DNA of 64,000 bases from the IMG/VR virus record IMGVR_UViG_3300043425_001190, positions 23,298 to 87,297 of that record, one strand, 5' to 3'. The notes beneath the pieces were generated by a model. That model saw nothing but the letters and a program-made list of their open reading frames with translations. It did not search any database and was not told where the DNA came from. Below are positions 3,828 through 58,420 of the stretch, piece by piece. Both the position numbers and the translations under genes were made by a program. The stretch comes from a virus. Position 1 is the first letter of the stretch; the number at the start of each line of letters is the position of its first letter.

Positions 3828-4775
3828 ATGAGCGAAATCAACGAACCGTTAATTTTAGTAGATGCTTCTAACGTAGTATGGCAGGCTCTTCACTCTGTAC
3901 GCGGCGAGTTAAAGAAAAACAAAACTCTTTGGGCTCAGCTGCCAAAGCCAGTCAAGATGTCTCAGCTATCAATAACCAGAAACAGTGTCATCGCCTTCTT
4001 CTTGGATGAGTTGTTTACCACCATTAACAGTTATAGTGATGGTCACAAGGTTCTGATCGCCCTGGATAGTAAACCAAGTTGGAGGTACAAGGTTGCCCCA
4101 GATTATAAGGGCCACCGCAAAGAAATCAAGGACCGATTTGCCGAGGATATTGATATCGAAGACGTAATGGGCGTCTTCTCCGATATGTATGAACTATTGA
4201 AGCAATGTCCGTATTTCATCGTGGTGGCAGCCCCAACAGCCGAGGCCGACGATGTTATTGGTACAGTCGTATTGAACAACGACAGTAAGAACAACTTCAT
4301 AATGTCTTCTGACCGGGATTTCATGCAACTTGGCCATAAAGCCAGATTGGTGTCTAGGTACAAAGAGGATGGGTGTTCAAAGTTAGTATCAGAACTTGAG
4401 GCCGCTGTTATGCGTGAAAGAAAAATACTATCTGGCGACAGTGGCGACCACATCAAAGCGGTGGTACCAAAGGTCACCGGACCAAAGTTTGCCGAAAACG
4501 CAGTTACAGTGGAAAATGTCACCACATACGCTAACGGTCTTTTGACTGAACTGTGTAAGGTTCACCCGTTTGCTAGGGATTCTTTCATCAGAAACAAGAT
4601 TTTAATCGATCTGTCAAAATCACCTCCAGCTATCAAGGCCACTATTCTACTAGAATATAACCTTCAACGGTCGAAATGGCGTCGTGATCTGTCGCCATTA
4701 GTGAAGTTCTTAAGAGAACAGAATCTTATAGGCCTTGGTCCAAAAGTGCAAAGGGTGATTAACAACCACCTCTAA
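3828..4775 (+). CDS. rnh: T4-type RNase H / 5'-3' flap exonuclease
   Basis: LILVDASN, ALDSKPSWR, DYKGHR, EADDVIG, SSDRDFMQL, GDSGDHI, RNKILIDL motifs. Confidence 0.92.
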   Translation: MSEINEPLILVDASNVVWQALHSVRGELKKNKTLWAQLPKPVKMSQLSITRNSVIAFFLDELFTTINSYSDGHKVLIALDSKPSWRYKVAPDYKGHRKEIKDRFAEDIDIEDVMGVFSDMYELLKQCPYFIVVAAPTAEADDVIGTVVLNNDSKNNFIMSSDRDFMQLGHKARLVSRYKEDGCSKLVSELEAAVMRERKILSGDSGDHIKAVVPKVTGPKFAENAVTVENVTTYANGLLTELCKVHPFARDSFIRNKILIDLSKSPPAIKATILLEYNLQRSKWRRDLSPLVKFLREQNLIGLGPKVQRVINNHL

Positions 4776-4825
4776 GTTTTTGTAAATGCGTTTATCACAA
4801 CACAACCACAAGAAGGAGACACATT

Positions 4826-5002
4826 ATGTCTGAAAATAAATCTGGTGACCTAATCCAGTGCACCAAATGCGGAACATACCGTTCAAAGAAAATCTCGGCA
4901 TGCTTCACCTGCGCGGCCAGCGGTAAAAACAAAGAACCTCTCAAGGTCGCCCCTCGCAACGAATCAGTGACCAATGGTAAGACCCTCTTCAGAGAAGGTT
5001 GA
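4826..5002 (+). CDS. small zinc-finger-like protein (58 aa, not in ORF track)
   Basis: AAGGAG RBS; MSENKSGDLIQCTKCGTYRSKKISACFTCAASG...; two CxxC. Confidence 0.7.
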   Translation: MSENKSGDLIQCTKCGTYRSKKISACFTCAASGKNKEPLKVAPRNESVTNGKTLFREG

Positions 5003-5007
5003 TCCAA

Positions 5008-5040
5008 CGCCCCGGCTTGATGACTCAGCCGGGGTGCTTT
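5008..5040 (+). terminator. rho-independent terminator-like hairpin
   Basis: CCCCGGCT...AGCCGGGG followed by T-rich tract. Confidence 0.55.
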
Positions 5041-5064
5041 ATATTATAGTAAAAAACGGGTTTT

Positions 5065-6297
5065 ATGGCAAGGTACGAATTAGCAATAATGAAGTTGGTA
5101 GCCGAGCGTTTCCACTCGAAATACCCTAATCTTCCCATGCGATATTCGTCATACCACGAGGCTTGGAATATGAGCTGCCCGGTATGCGGGGAGGGCAAAT
5201 CTATTGGTCAGAAGACACGTTTAAACGTGAAAGCTCGTGGTGAAGAAAACGATTCAATAGTGATATGTTATAACTCAGGATGTGAGTTATCACAACCAAC
5301 AGACCCGTTTGTGGCACTTGGTATTATGGAAGGACAGCCGGCCATTAAGATGAAAATGGAGCTAACCGGTAGGATTGTGGTAGATGAAGTCACCGGTGAT
5401 AAGATTTATAAAAGGAAAAGAATTTCGGTGGACCTACCACCAGGTACCATTATGATTACGCCGGCAGAAATTCATAAAGCGATTAGTGAAGATCCGTCGC
5501 AGGTTGAATACCTAAAGCCAATCTGTGCTGAGCTAACCAGGCGTAAAATCAACGAAGCTCCGTTCAGGCCCCCTCTGTATGTGGTGGTAAAAAAGGAGTG
5601 GGACGAAAGGTCTGAGTATTGGAAAAACCGGTTCATCATACCATTCTACGGGATCATGCACAACCTAACCTGGTACCAGGGACGAACCATCGTAAAAGGT
5701 GAAGACCCGAAATACCGTGGTTGCACACAGAAGGCTGATGGTATCATCCTATATGGGCTTGAGAAACTACGGAACCCTAAGGCTATCACTCTGCTGGAAG
5801 GACCAATAAACTCTTTCTTTGTGGCCAACGGGATAGCGTGTGGTAACTCATTCATTTCGGTTGAAGAGTTGGATTACCTCAGCAAGGAGTTTAATGTCAA
5901 ACGCAACCAGATTATCTGGATCGGCGATAACTTCTTAATAGATACCACCGCACGGTCTAACCTGTTTAGGGCTTTGGACCTTGGTATGAGAATTTTCACG
6001 TGGAAAGGCATTGATGTAAAAGATGTCAATGACTACGTGATTAAAACCAACGACCTAACCACCTTTGCAAACATAGATTACCTACTGGAGAACAGTTTAT
6101 GCGGGATGTCAGCGGAATGCGCCCTCAAGATAATGGGCATAACCAGAGAGTCGGTGAAAGCCGAGAAGATCGAGAGGAAGAAAATCTCCTCAGGAGCGTC
6201 CCAACCATCCAACAGTATGTCGACGATATCACAGGCGGACAAAGCAAAAAATATCTTCGAAGCTTTAACTTCGAAAAATCGTTCAACACCTATATGA
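5065..6297 (+). CDS. DNA primase (T4 gp61-like)
   Basis: Zn ribbon CPVCGE...CYNSGC, RFIIPFY, YQGRTI, DPKY, TOPRIM LLEGPINS, KDVNDY. Confidence 0.9.
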   Translation: MARYELAIMKLVAERFHSKYPNLPMRYSSYHEAWNMSCPVCGEGKSIGQKTRLNVKARGEENDSIVICYNSGCELSQPTDPFVALGIMEGQPAIKMKMELTGRIVVDEVTGDKIYKRKRISVDLPPGTIMITPAEIHKAISEDPSQVEYLKPICAELTRRKINEAPFRPPLYVVVKKEWDERSEYWKNRFIIPFYGIMHNLTWYQGRTIVKGEDPKYRGCTQKADGIILYGLEKLRNPKAITLLEGPINSFFVANGIACGNSFISVEELDYLSKEFNVKRNQIIWIGDNFLIDTTARSNLFRALDLGMRIFTWKGIDVKDVNDYVIKTNDLTTFANIDYLLENSLCGMSAECALKIMGITRESVKAEKIERKKISSGASQPSNSMSTISQADKAKNIFEALTSKNRSTPI

Positions 6298-9144: not shown

Positions 9145-9578
9145 TAGTCAGCCCTTGCCACGTAAATGGCCGAAAAGGTTATACCGACATGACCGCCACC
9201 GACGACCTTAATCACCGGCATGACTTTGTTTACGTCCTCCGGGTCGATAATCATGCCAACCGAGGTGCCTTGGTAAACGCGAATGAAATCCTGTCCAACA
9301 CCACCAGCCATGGACACGTTTAGTGCATCATCAAACGAAAGAGTGAACTCGTTGACGATATACCCAGGTGGGACGGCCAATGTATCCATGATAGTGCCAT
9401 CGTTGGCAACTAGCAGGTTTTTAGTGAAAATCCTGGTGCATGCCGGACTTGTTGCCACCATTTTGGCTTTTGGCCTTTCACGTCCGTTTTGCACAGCACC
9501 AAGAACAAGCCAGGACTCCTTATCGGCTAGATAGGTGTCGCCAAAGTCGTCCGATACTCGTGTGGTTGGATCGCCCAT
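9144..9578 (-). CDS. hypothetical protein
   Basis: 144-aa ORF; late-motif AATAAGTA at 9600..9607 upstream. Confidence 0.65.
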   Translation of the reverse strand: MGDPTTRVSDDFGDTYLADKESWLVLGAVQNGRERPKAKMVATSPACTRIFTKNLLVANDGTIMDTLAVPPGYIVNEFTLSFDDALNVSMAGGVGQDFIRVYQGTSVGMIIDPEDVNKVMPVIKVVGGGHVGITFSAIYVARAD

Positions 9579-9605
9579 ACTTTTTATCCTTATACCTGAT
9601 ACTTA

Positions 9606-11885
9606 TTACAGGTAATTGTGGGGTGGGAATTTAGCAGTTATTGTTGGGCCTTGTACTGTGTTAGATGTGGTATATCCTTCGGTGGCCGGATCCAAATAGG
9701 CGGCTACCGCGTTTACGGCCAGGGCCTGAGCTGCAGTCCAATCAGTGTCTTTATGATACAGGTAACTGGTTGGAATCGATTCTGTTCCACGAGTAGGGTG
9801 AATCCATTGTAGGTTGAACGACCCGGTTACCGAGTCATAATCCCAGCCGTCTAACATGTAGGCGTAGAGGCCAGCTTTCAGTCGGATTTTTCTTTTTGTA
9901 GTTGGGTCAACAGCATCCACCGAAGCTTTGAAGTCGACGTTGTGCGAACCAGACCCGTGGTATAGGGTGTCGAACCCGGTAAACGTCTGTGAAGGCGTTG
10001 AGTTGATGTATTTTGTGCCGGCACTGCTTGTGCTGGCGTTATCGGCGTGAATAAGTGGATACATGTCAGTTGCCGGGTCACCTGGTTCATAACGCCACTG
10101 GTCTCCACCACCGGCCCAACCAGCTGTTTTCTTTAGGCAAAGGAACAGGCTGGCACCCTCTTCACCACCGGCAATAAACCCATAATCACCATCGTTCTTG
10201 ATGTTGATGTACCCAAAGTACCTACCCTGGATGTTATTGCTGGAAGGGTTAGCCTGGTATTTGTAGTCAGTCCCAACAGCCGGGTAGGTTGGCGATCCAG
10301 ATAACTTCGGGTTTCCTGGGAACACACAATTTGGGTAGCTGTTATACGAAAGTTTGCCGCTCTTCTTAATAACCCTTACGTTTTGTGGGGTAGCAAGCCA
10401 GTCTATTTTCAACGGCATCAGGTTTGGCAGCGATTTACCAGTACCAGACGGGAAGTTAGTGGTGCGTGATTTGTGGTAGAACATACCAATGTAACCAGGC
10501 GAGTAACCAGCATGAGCATCCTCTAGATCGTTGTCTACCTGCAGGGCATCTTCAGCGATTTTAGTAATGGTTATCTGGCCAAACCTGGTGTCGTTGTTGT
10601 CGTATTTGGCTGGGTCAGCTGTTCCAGCAGTTCCATATGACGGCCCATATGCCTCAAAGTCACCAACTCCGGTTGTCACAGTAAACGATGCGTTATGCAT
10701 GACTTTAGAATGGATAGCGAAGGAAGCTGTCTCTTCAGACACTGACAAACACATCTCAACCGGAACTACAGTTTGCATCGCGTAGGCTGTCTTTGCGGCC
10801 AGACCAGGGTTGAATACCGCCACTCTGCTTAGGTCAAAACCGCCAGTGTCTTGGTTAAACTTCGACAAAACTACAGCGGTATCATACGCGTCGTGGTTGT
10901 ACCTTGGCAGCTGTACTTGACCAGTTATGGTGTACGTTCCGGTTGGCAGTGTTATAACTGTGTACCCAGATTCGACGTTGTTTCCAACACCAACCCCAGA
11001 ATCGCCGGCAAATGTTGGGAACCCGGCTGAACCAGGGGTCCAGCCAGGAATTGATGTAGCGCCTCCGATACCCATGCCATCATTGTAAGAAGAGGTATAC
11101 GATATATCAACGTTGGCGTTGATGGCACCAGGTTTCGTGATTGTCAGTGTCTGACCAGACAAGGAGCCATCTAGCACAAGAAGCTTTTTACCGTCAAGTG
11201 TGGTCCATCCACCTGGGGTATAAACGGTTGCCGGAGTAGCTGGACCGTTTACGATATATATCGTTTCGTAGGTGTTTGTTGATTTCGCATCGCATAGAAC
11301 CACATCACCGGTCTGTAATGTGACTCCCTCGACAACGGTTCCAGATAACAGACGAGGAGCCGGGTTGCTGTTTACTAAATCCATGGCCCTTACTACGAGG
11401 TCAACCCCGTCTGGAGGGGTGATGGTGGATGTCGGGTCAGTAACAGACAAAACCTCGTCACCCTGAATGTAACAGTATGTTGGCGAGTCCACATCTCGAC
11501 TGACCGCCGCTGTTGGGGTGAACAGCTGAGAGTTAGTATTTTTCTTTGTAACAACGTGAGTTATTTTGGCACCAGGTATAGCGGCCACCATCAGGTCACT
11601 AAACCTCATCGGCATCCCCAAATCAGCCAGCCAACTGTTGTTAAGGACGTTATCCGGTAGGTAAGCCCATGTGTTTTTTGGGGTCATTATGTATGGTTTA
11701 GCGCCGTTATCCGGCTTTCTGTTTGCCAGCACCATAACAGGTGACGCACCTGAATCACCAGCCACCAACTCGAACCCGGTACCGGCTTGGTTTAGTACTA
11801 GAGAGTACCTGGTGTTTGGTGTTACAACGGACCCGTTTAGGTTTAGGTCACCCAAAACTTGCGATAGATTAAAACCGTTGGACAT
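9606..11885 (-). CDS. tail fibre/receptor-binding protein with C-terminal PA14-like domain
   Basis: fibre motif VEGVTLQTGDVVLC; C-terminal GRYFGYINIKNDGDYGF..EEGASLFL..IRLKAGLY..FNLQW resembles PA14. Confidence 0.65.
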   Translation of the reverse strand: MSNGFNLSQVLGDLNLNGSVVTPNTRYSLVLNQAGTGFELVAGDSGASPVMVLANRKPDNGAKPYIMTPKNTWAYLPDNVLNNSWLADLGMPMRFSDLMVAAIPGAKITHVVTKKNTNSQLFTPTAAVSRDVDSPTYCYIQGDEVLSVTDPTSTITPPDGVDLVVRAMDLVNSNPAPRLLSGTVVEGVTLQTGDVVLCDAKSTNTYETIYIVNGPATPATVYTPGGWTTLDGKKLLVLDGSLSGQTLTITKPGAINANVDISYTSSYNDGMGIGGATSIPGWTPGSAGFPTFAGDSGVGVGNNVESGYTVITLPTGTYTITGQVQLPRYNHDAYDTAVVLSKFNQDTGGFDLSRVAVFNPGLAAKTAYAMQTVVPVEMCLSVSEETASFAIHSKVMHNASFTVTTGVGDFEAYGPSYGTAGTADPAKYDNNDTRFGQITITKIAEDALQVDNDLEDAHAGYSPGYIGMFYHKSRTTNFPSGTGKSLPNLMPLKIDWLATPQNVRVIKKSGKLSYNSYPNCVFPGNPKLSGSPTYPAVGTDYKYQANPSSNNIQGRYFGYINIKNDGDYGFIAGGEEGASLFLCLKKTAGWAGGGDQWRYEPGDPATDMYPLIHADNASTSSAGTKYINSTPSQTFTGFDTLYHGSGSHNVDFKASVDAVDPTTKRKIRLKAGLYAYMLDGWDYDSVTGSFNLQWIHPTRGTESIPTSYLYHKDTDWTAAQALAVNAVAAYLDPATEGYTTSNTVQGPTITAKFPPHNYL

Positions 11886-54955: not shown

Positions 54956-55192
54956 TTATTTCTGAGCGGAGAACAATTTATAAACACCAAATGTCCATAG
55001 GCCGGTGTAGAATATTGCCGTACCAAAAATTCCCCATGAGCTGGACTGGTACGCAGTATATAGCCAAAAAGGTTGAGAGGATAGACCCAAAATCGGGCCT
55101 ACCCTCCTGATCTTCAGGTTTGATGAGAATGAGCAGCACGTTGCCGAAACTGACAGCACAAACAGCAAAACCTGTGATATCAACCCGAACAT
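54956..55192 (-). CDS. small multi-TM membrane protein
   Basis: about three hydrophobic segments, GLSSQPFWLY. Confidence 0.65.
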   Translation of the reverse strand: MFGLISQVLLFVLSVSATCCSFSSNLKIRRVGPILGLSSQPFWLYTAYQSSSWGIFGTAIFYTGLWTFGVYKLFSAQK

Positions 55193-56127
55193 TAAATCAT
55201 GTCCTGGACGGTGGCCTTAATCATATCTTTGTACATTCCCCTGGTTGAAGGGTGACGAATGATCAACTCGGCAATAGCCCGGTCAAGCTCTTTATCCTTG
55301 GCATCTTTACCCTTGTGGTCCTTCGACAGGTAAATGTCGATCACCTTTTTCGGGCCGTCAGCACTGTTGAGGATTTCGTTGGTTGCCGATTCGCGCATCA
55401 TGGCGAATGGGTCTTGTGGTATGGCTGGTTGACTCACAACGGTCACCTTTGGTTCTAATGATTGCTGCTCGGCTTGCGGTTGGGCAACCGGGGGAGTGTA
55501 ATTGATTGGTTTGTTCTTTTTCAGGTAGTGTTCATCTTTGAACAGCTGTATTTTGGCACCGAAAACTCTGAGTTCTTTGTGATACGGCTTCGAACGGATG
55601 ATGGAAAGTAGCTGGGGGTGGATGCCAGACATACCAGGCCCGATGGTGGTGACTACTGGAATATCAACCAATTCGGTTTTGGCGGTTGCACCAACACCAA
55701 CAGTGACCTGTTGCTTTAGGCCAACAAACTCGTTGACGAACTCAAACGAGCTTACCAGGATAATTCTCTGCCCATCTTGTGAACTGATGCCATCGGCAGC
55801 TGCCACCCATCCTTTGATTTTCTCTTGACCATTGTCAATTCCTACGCAGTCCCCAATTCGGAGGACCATTACGCGCTGAGCCGCACCGGAAACATCGTAG
55901 TTGTTGCCTGTGGGATTCTTTTTGTCATGCATTGTTCCCTGTGACAGGGAGATGAACGCACCACCACGACGATATCTTTCATGGTATGGAAGAGAATCCT
56001 GCGAGCAGAAATTTACCCCTTGAACCGGGTATACCTTTTCTGCAGTTACGATGACTGGCATCTGGAGGTTGTCGGCGCCATCGACAATAGATTTATCAGA
56101 ATATCCAACTGTTGTTGGTGCGTGCAT
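55192..56127 (-). CDS. hypothetical protein
   Basis: about 311 aa; ATG 56127 just after the upstream stop. Confidence 0.7.
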   Translation of the reverse strand: MHAPTTVGYSDKSIVDGADNLQMPVIVTAEKVYPVQGVNFCSQDSLPYHERYRRGGAFISLSQGTMHDKKNPTGNNYDVSGAAQRVMVLRIGDCVGIDNGQEKIKGWVAAADGISSQDGQRIILVSSFEFVNEFVGLKQQVTVGVGATAKTELVDIPVVTTIGPGMSGIHPQLLSIIRSKPYHKELRVFGAKIQLFKDEHYLKKNKPINYTPPVAQPQAEQQSLEPKVTVVSQPAIPQDPFAMMRESATNEILNSADGPKKVIDIYLSKDHKGKDAKDKELDRAIAELIIRHPSTRGMYKDMIKATVQDMI

Positions 56128-56131
56128 GATA

Positions 56132-56479
56132 TTATTTCCCAGCTTTTGGTGTTGGTGCCGGTTTAACAGGTTTCGCAGGCTTCGCAGCGGGTTTGTCAGC
56201 CAATGCAACATTGCCATCTCCGGGGGTTTCAGATGCAGCGACGACAGTAGCCATCGGGGTACAGATGTCTTCGAAGGTCTTTTTCAGCTCGTTAACCGAG
56301 TTGTCAACGGCCTCAATGGCGCTCTTATCAACCATCCTCGACTTCATCCAGTTCACGATCTGTGAAATCTCGTTGATCTTATCGGCGACAGCACCAATTT
56401 CAGGTGGCCGTTGAACACCGTAGTTCTCACGGCCGACGAGAGGTTGGATGACGTGGGTTGCCGGGTTGTCAATTTTCAT
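56132..56479 (-). CDS. hypothetical protein (coiled coil, KPA-rich tail)
   Basis: ATGA-coupled to the deaminase; GGAG RBS. Confidence 0.7.
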   Translation of the reverse strand: MKIDNPATHVIQPLVGRENYGVQRPPEIGAVADKINEISQIVNWMKSRMVDKSAIEAVDNSVNELKKTFEDICTPMATVVAASETPGDGNVALADKPAAKPAKPVKPAPTPKAGK

Positions 56480-57405
56480 TTCTTTTTCTCCGTTTTAAAC
56501 AGTCTGAATTTTTGTTCATTTTCCCATGAAAAATCTCTGCCAGTTAACTTAGCGAAAACGTCGCACGCGTTCTTCATGTCCCCACACATAACATCGGCGT
56601 CAGTACACGGAATAACGGTAATTCCGTTGTCTATTAGTGTTGTATATATCTCGGATAGTTGGGTTGGTGTGTAGTGTAGCAGGTTTGACATGGGGCATAA
56701 CTCAAGTACTGTACCATTGATTCTTACGTTTTCAACCATTGGTTGGAATTTTGAAATCATTAATCCATGACCTATTCTGTGTGGTGACAACTGGTCGATA
56801 ATTGACCAAAGATAATCTTCTACTCCTTCGTAGTCAACCTCACCGCAGTGGATAGTAACACCAAGGCCAGCGTCCTTGCATTCGTTTATGGCATCTGAGT
56901 ACTCTTTTGGGTCAAATTGACCAGACCGTTCATCCCCAGCCAAATCTACACCAACAACACCACGGTTTGAATATTTTATCGCTTTTGATAACGTAATGAA
57001 ATTCTTATTTTTAGTGAACTTTCTATCCATACACAAAATTAGACCACCGTCGATACCATAGTAGTCAGCCGCTCGTTCAAACCCATTAATAGCCGACGAG
57101 ATAATTCTATCCATGTCGTTCTCACCGCCGTTTGTCCTCAGCATCGGACAGAATCTTAGCTCCTGATACTTGACTCCAGAACGATACGCCTCGGCAAACA
57201 CCTCAAACACGCTTCGTTCCATCGCGTAGCTGTTGCTCTGTATTTTTTCAACCATTGGATAAGCAGAGAAATACCCATCGTACGAAGAAACAGGTGGCAT
57301 GAAATCATCATATCTTTTGGCCACCTTGTAACCCAACGTACATGCTATTTCCCATAAAACCGACCGTTTAGTAGACCCACCAAGGTGAGCGTGCAAATTT
57401 ATCAT
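56476..57405 (-). CDS. adenosine/AMP deaminase-family metallohydrolase
   Basis: LHAHLGGS, ELRF, GVDLAGDE, TIHCGE, RIGHG, ELCPMSN, CTDAD. Confidence 0.9.
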   Translation of the reverse strand: MINLHAHLGGSTKRSVLWEIACTLGYKVAKRYDDFMPPVSSYDGYFSAYPMVEKIQSNSYAMERSVFEVFAEAYRSGVKYQELRFCPMLRTNGGENDMDRIISSAINGFERAADYYGIDGGLILCMDRKFTKNKNFITLSKAIKYSNRGVVGVDLAGDERSGQFDPKEYSDAINECKDAGLGVTIHCGEVDYEGVEDYLWSIIDQLSPHRIGHGLMISKFQPMVENVRINGTVLELCPMSNLLHYTPTQLSEIYTTLIDNGITVIPCTDADVMCGDMKNACDVFAKLTGRDFSWENEQKFRLFKTEKKK

Positions 57406-57439
57406 ATGTCGCCTTTCTCGGGATTTAGTCAAAATACGA

Positions 57440-57468
57440 AAAAGCCCCAGGTTTCCCTGGGGCTCTTA
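57440..57468 (-). terminator. terminator after HNH gene
   Basis: AGCCCCAGG-loop-CCTGGGGCT followed on minus strand by a T run. Confidence 0.7.
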
Positions 57469-57476
57469 TCAGGCCG

Positions 57477-58349
57477 CTATACCGCCAGGCCAAAAAATTT
57501 TTTGGCCGCACATACGTCGTATACACCAGATTTGTCACTGTTCTCTTCCCACCACATCGGCCTCAGGTTGGTATGGTGGTTAAGGATAACCACAAAACAC
57601 TGAAACTCTTCGTCACTACCGGCTAAGTCCTGCGCCGCTTTGATTGGGATAATATGGTCAAGCACCCACTTACCAATGCCATGTCCGTAATTTTCCAGAG
57701 ACATACCATCGGCAAAAAGCAGAGTAACATATACCAACAACTCAGGCATAGTACAGCCTAGAATATTATGCGTTTTAGCTGGTTTAGAGGAAGACCACAT
57801 GGTGGAACGTTTAAAGGATTGTTTTACAAGACATCGGACGTTTTTTGCAAACCGAAAGTTGGAGTCATTGGCTAATCTGGCTCTCTGGTATTCGGCATCA
57901 CATTCGGCCTTTCTGTCGCGGTTCAACGTTCTATATTCTTTAGACTTCTTGTTTATGGTGTCTTTATTTTTGGTATAGTAGTCTGCATGTTTAGCCTTAA
58001 GCTCATCCTTCTTTAACTGCCACCTCTTTTTATTGGCAGCAGCTATGGCTTCTTTATTGTTCTTTCTCCACTCGGCCCTATCTTTTTTACACTTTTCGAT
58101 GTTGTCTAGGTATCTAACACGGTTACGAGCCGAAACAACCTCTTTGTTGGCGGTTGCATACTCCTTAACTCGTGCCTTAATGTGTTCTCGGTTGGTCAGA
58201 TATTTGTTTTTGGAATACGTTTTTGTACACGCCTGCTCCCAACTTCCCTCCCATGTGATGCCCTTGGCAGCAGTCTCCTTCTTGTTGAAGGCCTTAGGAG
58301 CTACCAACTTGCCATCGATGTAAACACTTTCAGTAAATTCTTCAGACAT
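57477..58349 (-). CDS. HNH homing-endonuclease-like protein
   Basis: K/Y/N-rich helical repeats, ILGCT, ENYG..WVLDHIIP, NHHTNLRPMWWEENSDK. Confidence 0.85.
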   Translation of the reverse strand: MSEEFTESVYIDGKLVAPKAFNKKETAAKGITWEGSWEQACTKTYSKNKYLTNREHIKARVKEYATANKEVVSARNRVRYLDNIEKCKKDRAEWRKNNKEAIAAANKKRWQLKKDELKAKHADYYTKNKDTINKKSKEYRTLNRDRKAECDAEYQRARLANDSNFRFAKNVRCLVKQSFKRSTMWSSSKPAKTHNILGCTMPELLVYVTLLFADGMSLENYGHGIGKWVLDHIIPIKAAQDLAGSDEEFQCFVVILNHHTNLRPMWWEENSDKSGVYDVCAAKKFFGLAV

Positions 58350-58420
58350 CTTCTCACCTCTTTCGTGGGATTGTTTGTTTAGAACGGCACGAGGTTACAA
58401 GCTCTCGTGCCGTTCGCTTA

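Follow-up and report, generated by a model that had tools for sequence, protein, structure and literature searches.

The deaminase gene and its active site

The 64,000-nucleotide stretch of DNA analyzed here (the window) is part of the 87,297-bp IMG/VR virus record IMGVR_UViG_3300043425_001190, which is ~40% complete. On its minus strand, close to the gene for the major capsid protein gp23 of a T4-like phage, lies a gene encoding a protein of 309 residues (P0001) that is a member of the adenosine/AMP deaminase superfamily, with the amidohydrolase TIM barrel fold. The gene and its active-site elements are as follows.

56476-57405, minus strand: deaminase gene, stop codon included, 309 residues, member of the clade termed G-type below (translation, Pfam, AlphaFold2 model, adenosine deaminase (ADA)-family fold)
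57376-57393, minus strand: HAHLGG, residues 5-10, two zinc-binding His and Gly9 (alignment)
57136-57138, minus strand: Arg90, a signature residue of the clade, located in the loop that follows strand 2 (alignment)
56839-56850, minus strand: HCGE, residues 186-189, third zinc-binding His and catalytic Glu (invariant in both clades)
56764-56772, minus strand: GHG, residues 212-214, catalytic His (translation and alignment)
56593-56604, minus strand: TDAD, residues 268-271, zinc-binding Asp269 and Ala270 (translation and alignment)

Pfam assigned residues 3-289 to the A_deaminase family PF00962 with 117.3 bits, well over the family cut-off of 27 (E 1e-33). Alignment with the Escherichia coli adenosine deaminase Add showed that the six catalytic positions are kept, H5, H7, H186, E189, H213 and D269 corresponding to Add H12, H14, H197, E200, H221 and D278. 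The first-pass annotation of this DNA had described the metal-binding and catalytic motifs as intact, and HAHLGG, HCGE, GHG and TDAD are all present. It had also pointed out that the usual HxHLDG reads HAHLGG and the usual TDDP reads TDAD; both changes were confirmed by translation and alignment, with G9 aligned with Add D16 and with A270 following D269 (TDAD against TDDP in Add). The AlphaFold2 model, built from a 119-sequence alignment, had a mean pLDDT (predicted local distance difference test) of 93.6 and a pTM (predicted template modeling score) of 0.92. When this model was compared with the PDB by Foldseek, the best matches all belonged to the adenosine-deaminase family, with template modeling (TM) scores by query of 0.71-0.84 and a probability of 1.00 to ADA structures.

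All seven adenosine-deaminase equivalog models of NCBIfam scored below their cut-offs, the best being TIGR01430 with 142.1 bits against 216.55, while the ADGF/ADA2 model TIGR01431 reached 35.4 bits against a cut-off of 315. The AMPD family PF19326 was absent among the Pfam matches at E<=1, and PHROG held no family for the protein. In PADLOC, CARF_ADA (Cad1) was the sole family at E<=1 (1.7e-25), and the match covered profile positions 329-540 of 605, that is, the deaminase half. No RdrB match was seen among the PADLOC families at the same threshold; PADLOC-DB 2.0.0 presumably includes models for RdrB, a protein of ~800 residues. The closest PDB sequence was 6n9m (4.3e-18), the MAPDA/ADAL structure 6iv5 scored 1e-16, and 6n91 gave a TM score of 0.84. 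Our verdict is that the protein is not an ordinary Add, KomA, Cad1, RdrB, AMPD or MAPDA.

Membership of a separate clade

Searches that covered 5.8 and 1.8 billion proteins returned P0003 and P0122 as the closest relatives, at 40-45% identity, followed by a very large set at 30-43%. Gly was found at both altered sites in 153 of 230 aligned full-length homologs. The altered residues, first thought to be peculiar to the phage enzyme, are thus a trait of its clade.

Phylogenetic relationships were then read from three quick trees (129-146 rows) and one careful tree (54 rows, site-heterogeneous model), the RdrB, AMPD, ADAL and ADGF families being judged by profile or PDB scores, outside the trees. 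A clade with the motifs HxHxG, NPxxR and TD[G/A], which we call G-type (92-96 rows), was split from the remaining, D-type side with Shimodaira-Hasegawa-like approximate likelihood ratio test (SH-aLRT) values of 99-100, and in the careful tree the D-type outgroup had a support of 100/99. On the D-type side are E. coli Add and the add genes of Ilyobacter (Fusobacteriota) and Clostridium butyricum, along with a KomA-like protein, recognized as such from its ADA-HAM1-SIR2 operon, and Cad1-like domains, which are the deaminase domains of 750-830-residue proteins matching the Cad1 model. The phylogeny that had been proposed as a check therefore set the enzyme apart from ordinary Add. Seven signature residues (G9, Q56, S57, N86, R90, D97 and K141) each occur in at least 85% of the G-type and at most 7% of the D-type rows; the phage protein keeps six of them, with C86 replacing Asn. 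The first-site G is present in 92% of the G-type rows and in 0% of the D-type rows, and R90 in 95% and 0%, respectively (consensus RFNPxxR, phage RFCPMLR). At the second site most G-type rows read TDG[PT]; the trio formed by P0001, P0003 and P0122 has TDAD, TDAS and TDGT.

G-type genes were found on at least 595 genome contigs, from Myxococcota, Chloroflexota, Gaiellales/Thermoleophilia, Rokubacteria, Binatia and archaea, and their products are named "adenosine deaminase" in public databases. PDB and literature searches found no solved structure and no characterized member of the clade. We examined 20 genomes with a G-type gene: 8 also carried an HxHLDG paralog, 4 carried an HxHxEG (adenine-deaminase-like) paralog, and 8 had the G-type gene alone. 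The G-type clade is thus a paralog of Add and does not replace it. A substrate other than plain adenosine, as the first-pass annotation had suggested, is plausible because the enzymes form a separate clade, score below the equivalog cut-offs and coexist with an Add paralog in 8 of the 20 genomes; the loss of the first Asp, taken by itself, suggests a nucleotide substrate but does not prove one.

Next to the bacterial G-type genes the commonest neighbor was a FolD-like gene (methylene-tetrahydrofolate dehydrogenase/cyclohydrolase, assigned by eye). It occurred in 21 of 80 loci, in most cases directly beside the G-type gene and in convergent orientation. The other recurrent neighbors were lineage-specific, and no function was drawn from the neighborhoods.

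Two groups of proteins outside the G-type clade are recorded here as well. Nine proteins of 745-828 residues (P0180, P0208, P0209, P0211, P0212, P0247, P0250, P0258 and P0266) matched the deaminase half of CARF_ADA in their N-terminal part (1e-59 to 1e-76), with no CARF part in front and ~400 more residues behind, and may be undescribed deaminase fusions. The operon of the KomA-like protein lies on the Vibrio parahaemolyticus plasmid pHLA (NZ_CP114196.1, L100, 3962-6281) and has the ADA-HAM1-SIR2 gene order of the Kongming system (KomABC); it follows a small helix-turn-helix gene, is near tet(B), and its second gene encodes a non-canonical purine nucleoside triphosphate pyrophosphatase.

Association of phage relatives with PurZ

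Eight IMG/VR records with G-type deaminases were found via two alignments (the "short" and "GSM" subclades). These were searched for PurZ, a marker of phages with 2-aminoadenine (Z) genomes. PF00709, the adenylosuccinate synthetase family to which PurZ-like proteins belong, was present in 7 of the 8 records, and these include fragments of 19, 47 and 55 kb. One of the PF00709 genes was compared with solved structures and matched PurZ best (7odx, 6e-24; phiVC8 PurZ, 6e-23; archaeal PurA, 3e-15). As controls, we used 23 of 24 T4-like records of at least 20 kb chosen by gp23 similarity and 3 other viral records with ADA-family genes; PF00709 was found in none of the 23 and in none of the 3. Fisher's exact test gave p = 3e-6 for the association. 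In the records with both genes, 2-33 kb separated the deaminase from PurZ. A role in nucleotide-pool editing or DNA modification, one of those listed at the outset, gains support from this contrast between 7/8 viral G-type records and 0/23 controls.

The same eight records held a Gp23-family capsid gene in 4 cases, an HD_3 protein in 3 (2 over the cut-off) and MazG in 2. The deaminase thus occurs alongside the known Z-phage enzymes and is not a strict substitute for them. Our literature searches, whose scope did not extend to supplementary gene lists, found no such deaminase described for PurZ phages, and phrase searches returned no report of a phage or viral adenosine deaminase, a dAMP/dATP deaminase or a bacterial AMP deaminase. 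The word "deaminase" occurs 0 times in the accessible part of a 2026 survey of Z-phage nucleotide enzymes in Nucleic Acids Research (PMC12884076).

Two details of gene order were noted in the phage records. The PurZ-bearing record L141 has a gene that, by eye, is ThyX-type thymidylate synthase-like two genes past the deaminase (4423-5538). The deaminase gene of L132 overlaps the end of a clamp-loader gene that is gp62-like by eye (9531-10960), and a gp44-like gene lies nearby in L131 and L132.

Active-site residues and the likely substrate

Gly9 stands at the position of the Asp through which Add contacts the 5' side of the ribose, and Ala270 at the position of the Asp that contacts N7 of the purine. 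According to the accessible text of three reports, ADA Asp19 keeps out phosphorylated substrates and is missing in AMP deaminases (PMC13733733); MAPDA holds the phosphate of N6-methyl-AMP by Asn17, Thr98, Lys100 and His65, and N7 by Asp296 (PMC6451127); and KomA deaminates dAMP and prefers it (bioRxiv 10.1101/2024.12.20.629578). In the phage protein, R90 comes two residues after M88, the residue that aligns with MAPDA Lys100, which binds phosphate. Arg90 may therefore bind phosphate, and together G9 and Arg90 would fit a 5'-phosphate site.

Among nucleotide deaminases of the ADA family, replacement of both Asp residues thus recurs. The statement that nucleotide-acting relatives diverge near the first site held for MAPDA (Asn17) and for the KomA-like protein (also Asn), but not for the Cad1-like domains, which keep the Asp. 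The second-site Asp is only weakly diagnostic because it is replaced in add-annotated genes too, the motif reading TDNR in Ilyobacter and Clostridium butyricum.

Another variant of these sites was seen on an Enterobacter cancerogenus plasmid (NZ_CP082282.1, L099, 3015-6195), in an operon with a nucleoside hydrolase gene, an ADA-family gene and a major facilitator superfamily transporter gene. The ADA-family gene reads HVHLDTC ... NTDAR and thus encodes a D-type enzyme whose second site has Ala; the setting is one of nucleoside catabolism.

Lineage, occurrence and selection

P0001, P0003 and P0122 form a clade in the careful tree (97/94). P0003 and P0122 are encoded on Joint Genome Institute (JGI) contigs of 59,627 and 9,729 bp, respectively, and the two gp23 proteins closest to that of the window (71% and 70% identity) also come from JGI contigs of 59,627 and 9,729 bp. 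On the basis of these equal contig sizes, the deaminase seems to be fixed near gp23 in a small T4-like lineage. IMG/VR scans with P0001, P0003 and P0122 found no relatives, and one metagenome scan found none closer than 39% identity. The trio is sister to a clade of 7 rows (100/100) that holds two deaminases from PurZ records (L133 and L145).

Parts of the window were found on contigs from four freshwater or freshwater-sediment metagenome studies, in addition to three freshwater runs that contain all of it and may be where it came from. One metatranscriptome library contained contigs identical to 56821-57129 and 55908-56525; these show presence in an RNA library and not transcription, DNA carry-over being possible. 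A 2018 freshwater contig represents a variant strain, with 28 of 843 bases differing. The differences listed alter 23 codons of the deaminase gene, 20 of them synonymously and three conservatively (S170A, E175D and I229T). The deaminase gene is under purifying selection, as judged from these synonymous changes.

Genomic setting

The record ends 6.6 kb beyond the deaminase gene on one side, and ~80 kb are visible on the other. Upstream, and on the strand of the deaminase gene, are T4-type head genes for portal, prohead protease, scaffold and gp23 (Pfam and PHROG), and the gp23 protein scored 327 bits to the Gp23-family Pfam model. After gp23 the order is hairpin, 290-residue gene, second hairpin, deaminase, 115-residue gene and 311-residue gene; fibre genes and then the clamp loader gene gp44 follow. 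In the window, ~10 kb that include a GC-rich fibre cassette separate gp44 from the deaminase. Deaminases had been called uncommon in T4-like head regions, and this was borne out, as PF00962 was found in 0 of 23 other T4-like IMG/VR records of at least 20 kb. The elements immediately around the deaminase gene are listed below.

57440-57467, minus strand: hairpin resembling a terminator (12 pairs, 7 of them G-C, followed by a T-run), separating the 290-residue gene from the deaminase gene
57412-57417, minus strand: Shine-Dalgarno-like GAAAGG, 6 nucleotides before the ATG at 57405 (read from the sequence)
56132-56479, minus strand: 115-residue gene, its ATG overlapping the deaminase stop codon (ATGA; junction sequence), no family match
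55192-56127, minus strand: 311-residue gene, starting 5 nucleotides after the 115-residue gene (the longest open reading frame would start at 56217)

The longest open reading frame of the deaminase gene would begin with a TTG at 57432, inside the T-tract of the hairpin at 57440-57467. The ATG at 57405 gives the same 309 residues as an independent gene call in ENA (P0270). Neither the 115-residue nor the 311-residue protein had a match in Pfam or PHROG, or homologs at E<=0.01 in the other phage loci examined. From the gene overlap, the 115-residue protein could be a partner of the deaminase. This small protein has a Pro/Ala/Lys-rich tail.

The T4 late promoter TATAAATA occurs in 2 copies in the 64 kb, which is not above chance, and neither copy is near the deaminase gene. 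Sigma-70-like promoter matches in the window are weak consensus matches, and no promoter was assigned. We also considered that the deaminase might be packaged into the capsid as an injected enzyme. This idea was dropped because, by eye, the protein has no N-terminal targeting or LxE cleavage signal and because its zinc-binding His residues begin at residue 5.

The 290-residue gene (57477-58349, minus strand) between gp23 and the deaminase has an HNH-like motif by eye. Its product matched nothing in Pfam or PHROG, even with the threshold at E<=1, and its closest Atlas clusters are viral, some of them named HNH nuclease. This stretch is replaced in other strains: one RNA contig omits 57578-58231 and has 448 other letters instead, and DNA contigs of other strains diverge at 57540, at 57581 and beyond 57464. 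One variant-strain contig leaves the window sequence at 57464, at the hairpin 57440-57467 that separates this gene from the deaminase. The 290-residue gene is probably a mobile insert of the homing-endonuclease type. Between it and gp23 is a hairpin of 13 pairs (58382-58415), which the scan listed on the plus strand only. By eye it would fold on the minus strand too, just past the gp23 stop codon, and it looks like the gp23 terminator.

Function of the deaminase

We favor, with a probability of roughly 0.5, a model where the protein would hydrolytically deaminate adenine nucleotides and so serve in phage nucleotide-pool editing, possibly within adenine replacement. The protein would be an active zinc-dependent hydrolytic 6-aminopurine deaminase. 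A zinc-bound water would be held by His5, His7, His186 and Asp269, Glu189 would protonate N1 and His213 would act as the base, converting the adenine ring to hypoxanthine. Because of the Gly at the ribose 5' side and the invariant Arg90 and Lys141, we infer a substrate with a 5' phosphate, which could be AMP, dAMP or the di- or triphosphates and would yield inosine nucleotides. Adenine (deoxy)nucleotides would then be removed and/or routed via inosine monophosphate (IMP) toward guanine nucleotides. The most likely setting would be one where adenine is replaced or depleted in phage DNA synthesis (2-aminoadenine "Z" genomes), since phage relatives of the clade almost always carry PurZ. There, deoxyadenosine (dA) nucleotides have to be eliminated, and dZMP, the 2-aminoadenine deoxynucleotide, is made from dGMP.

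How far this setting applies to the phage itself is a separate matter. The chance that it is a PurZ phage is, in our estimate, even at best and perhaps rather lower. A more specific proposal is possible but doubtful: a true T4-like freshwater lineage would replace or deplete its DNA adenine, and the gp23-adjacent deaminase would be core to an undescribed route that destroys dA nucleotides via IMP into the guanine/2-aminoadenine branch, alongside or replacing DatZ, DutZ and DmtZ, with purZ located in the unsequenced 60% of the genome.

Several observations weigh against the model of nucleotide deamination in an adenine-replacing phage. The sister relation of the trio to the clade with PurZ-phage deaminases is moderately supported (90/62 in the careful tree; 70, 94 and 92 in the quick trees). 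Neither PF00709 nor a search with a phage PurZ protein (E<=1) revealed PurZ in the 87-kb record, and profile and PHROG scans of the record likewise gave no match to MazG, HD_3, Ham1, IMPDH or ribonucleotide reductase; as most of the genome is missing, these negatives are uninformative. Of 142 PurZ homologs 120 were listed, and no contig of 59,627, 87,297 or 9,729 bp carries any of these 120. The PurZ records are themselves only distantly T4-like, the Gp23 family scoring 34-57 bits in 4 of the 8 against 327 here. The presence of HD_3 in 3 of the 8 records indicates that the deaminase is not simply a DatZ replacement, and the association with PurZ fits a nucleoside substrate equally well, for instance dA released by DatZ. 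The G-type clade is also common in bacteria and archaea without Z-DNA, from which we reason that its basic activity is housekeeping. As to the residues, the HxHLDGS motif of the Cad1-like domains makes the loss of the first Asp suggestive and not diagnostic, and an acidic Glu53 stands at the position aligned with the phosphate-binding His65 of MAPDA.

The main rival explanation, which we consider unlikely, is that the protein is an ordinary adenosine/deoxyadenosine (or adenine) deaminase that serves auxiliary purine salvage, turning the nucleosides set free from host nucleic acid into reusable inosine or hypoxanthine. Its catalytic residues are all as in ADA, bacterial adenosine deaminases (6n9m and 6n91) are its best sequence and fold matches in the PDB, and public sources label the clade accordingly. 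Moreover, the G-type gene is the sole PF00962 gene in 8 of the 20 genomes, and the second-site Asp is absent in add-annotated genes as well. DatZ makes dA (reaction given in the accessible part of PMC12884076), and in PurZ phages a deaminase acting on nucleosides could clear it. Such an enzyme would, however, be expected neither to fall below all the NCBIfam cut-offs nor to form a clade separate from Add. Salvage is also hard to square with the genomes where the G-type gene has a canonical paralog (8 of 20) or an adenine-deaminase-like one (4 of 20), with the loss of the acidic 5'-site residue and with the gain of clade-specific Arg and Lys residues.

It is rather improbable that the enzyme acts on a modified or 5'-substituted adenine, such as N6-methyl-(d)AMP set free from methylated host nucleic acid (a sanitation role like that of MAPDA), S-adenosylhomocysteine, methylthioadenosine or 2,6-diaminopurine nucleotides. 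With both contact Asp residues changed to small ones, the pocket could be larger at the 5' and N7 sides, and MAPDA/ADAL structures rank near the ADA ones (6iv5). ADA enzymes accept 2,6-diaminopurine nucleosides. A link to one-carbon metabolism might also be read from the convergent FolD neighbor; yet FolD is on the opposite strand and is found in about a quarter of the loci. The MAPDA residues Asn17, Lys100 and Asp296 are not kept (G9, M88 and A270 in the phage protein), conversion of Z to G nucleotides would harm a Z-genome phage, and no direct evidence was found for any of the candidates.

Counter-defence had been among the roles first proposed, and we regard it as slightly less probable still. 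The deaminase would here destroy adenine-containing immune messengers (cyclic oligoadenylates, cyclic GMP-AMP-type or ADP-ribose-derived molecules) or hinder Kongming, RADAR or Cad1. The gene is accessory, lies in a variable region next to the likely mobile endonuclease gene, and defence systems use the same fold on nucleotides. The sole PADLOC match, to the CARF_ADA deaminase domain (1.7e-25), could be cited in favor, but it reflects general family similarity, and the tree puts both the Cad1-like domains and the KomA-like protein on its D-type side. At 309 residues the protein lacks a sensor or binding domain, those relatives whose context is known point to PurZ phages and not to anti-defence loci, and literature phrase searches returned no phage ADA-family anti-defence protein. 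Nothing that we found points to action on signaling molecules. Finally, it is highly improbable that the protein is inactive, a remnant in decay, or a structural component of the head region without enzymatic function: the gene does sit among late structural genes with a terminator-like hairpin just upstream, and the C-terminal helix of the bacterial relatives is shortened here, but the catalytic residues are intact, the fold is confident, most changed codons (20 of 23) are synonymous, three related phages retain the gene, and identical contigs occur in the metatranscriptome library (a weak point, given possible DNA carry-over).

Comparison with known systems

The closest likeness is to the bacterial and archaeal G-type proteins (~330 residues, HxHxGG...RFNPMKR...NTDGP), which are 35-43% identical to the phage protein over nearly the full length and fall into one clade with it in every tree. 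The phage protein differs from them in being phage-borne, in its shorter C-terminus, in C86 where they have Asn, in CTDAD where they have NTDGP, and in a DYEGV insertion after HCGE. The G-type deaminases of PurZ phages (L132, L133, L139, L141, L142, L143 and L145) are 32-37% identical to P0001 and share with it a G or S at the first site and, in the five rows read, the conserved Arg. Several of them occur in distantly T4-like genomes (gp44-like genes in L131 and L132). In contrast to these records, no PurZ is visible here, the phage is a much closer relative of T4, and gene neighborhoods are not shared.

KomA of the Kongming system resembles the phage protein in family (PF00962) and size (~320 residues), and it acts on adenine nucleotides, as described in the accessible part of the preprint (bioRxiv 10.1101/2024.12.20.629578). 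The KomA-like protein (P0273) is also without both contact Asp residues (HVHLNG, SDNP). It is, however, only 28% identical to P0001, belongs to the D-type side of the tree, has Asn at the first site and, reading ELRNSVIY with Ile aligned with R90, is without the arginine of NPxxR. KomA is encoded in an operon with HAM1 and SIR2 genes, whereas the phage record has no Ham1 match and the neighbors of the deaminase are phage genes. MAPDA/ADAL (6ijn, 6iv5 and 8qch) are similar in size and fold (TM ~0.78) and also have the first Asp replaced (HAHL(N/G)GS). MAPDA keeps Asp296 and binds phosphate by Asn17, Thr98 and Lys100 (accessible part of PMC6451127), whereas the phage protein, at ~24% identity, has G9, C86, M88 and A270. 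Add (E. coli b1623, TIGR01430) shares the fold, the zinc ligands and the catalytic Glu and His, but reads HRHLDGN, SPYMA and TDDP where the phage protein reads HAHLGGS, CPMLR and TDAD. Cad1 has an N-terminal CARF sensor domain, which the phage protein lacks.

To our knowledge, the adenine-removal enzymes described for Z phages are all hydrolases or transferases (DatZ, MazZ/DUF550, DutZ, DUF5664 and DmtZ). The G-type clade tracks PurZ in phages, which points to a further, deamination-based way of managing the purine pool. The same link gives an approach to the function of a large clade in bacteria and archaea that is labeled "adenosine deaminase" and yet is a paralog of Add. The window adds a lineage of close T4 relatives that seem to have the gene fixed beside the one for the major capsid protein. 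Should the enzyme prefer (d)AMP or (d)ATP, it would also have practical interest as a nucleotide deaminase that is compact and works on its own.

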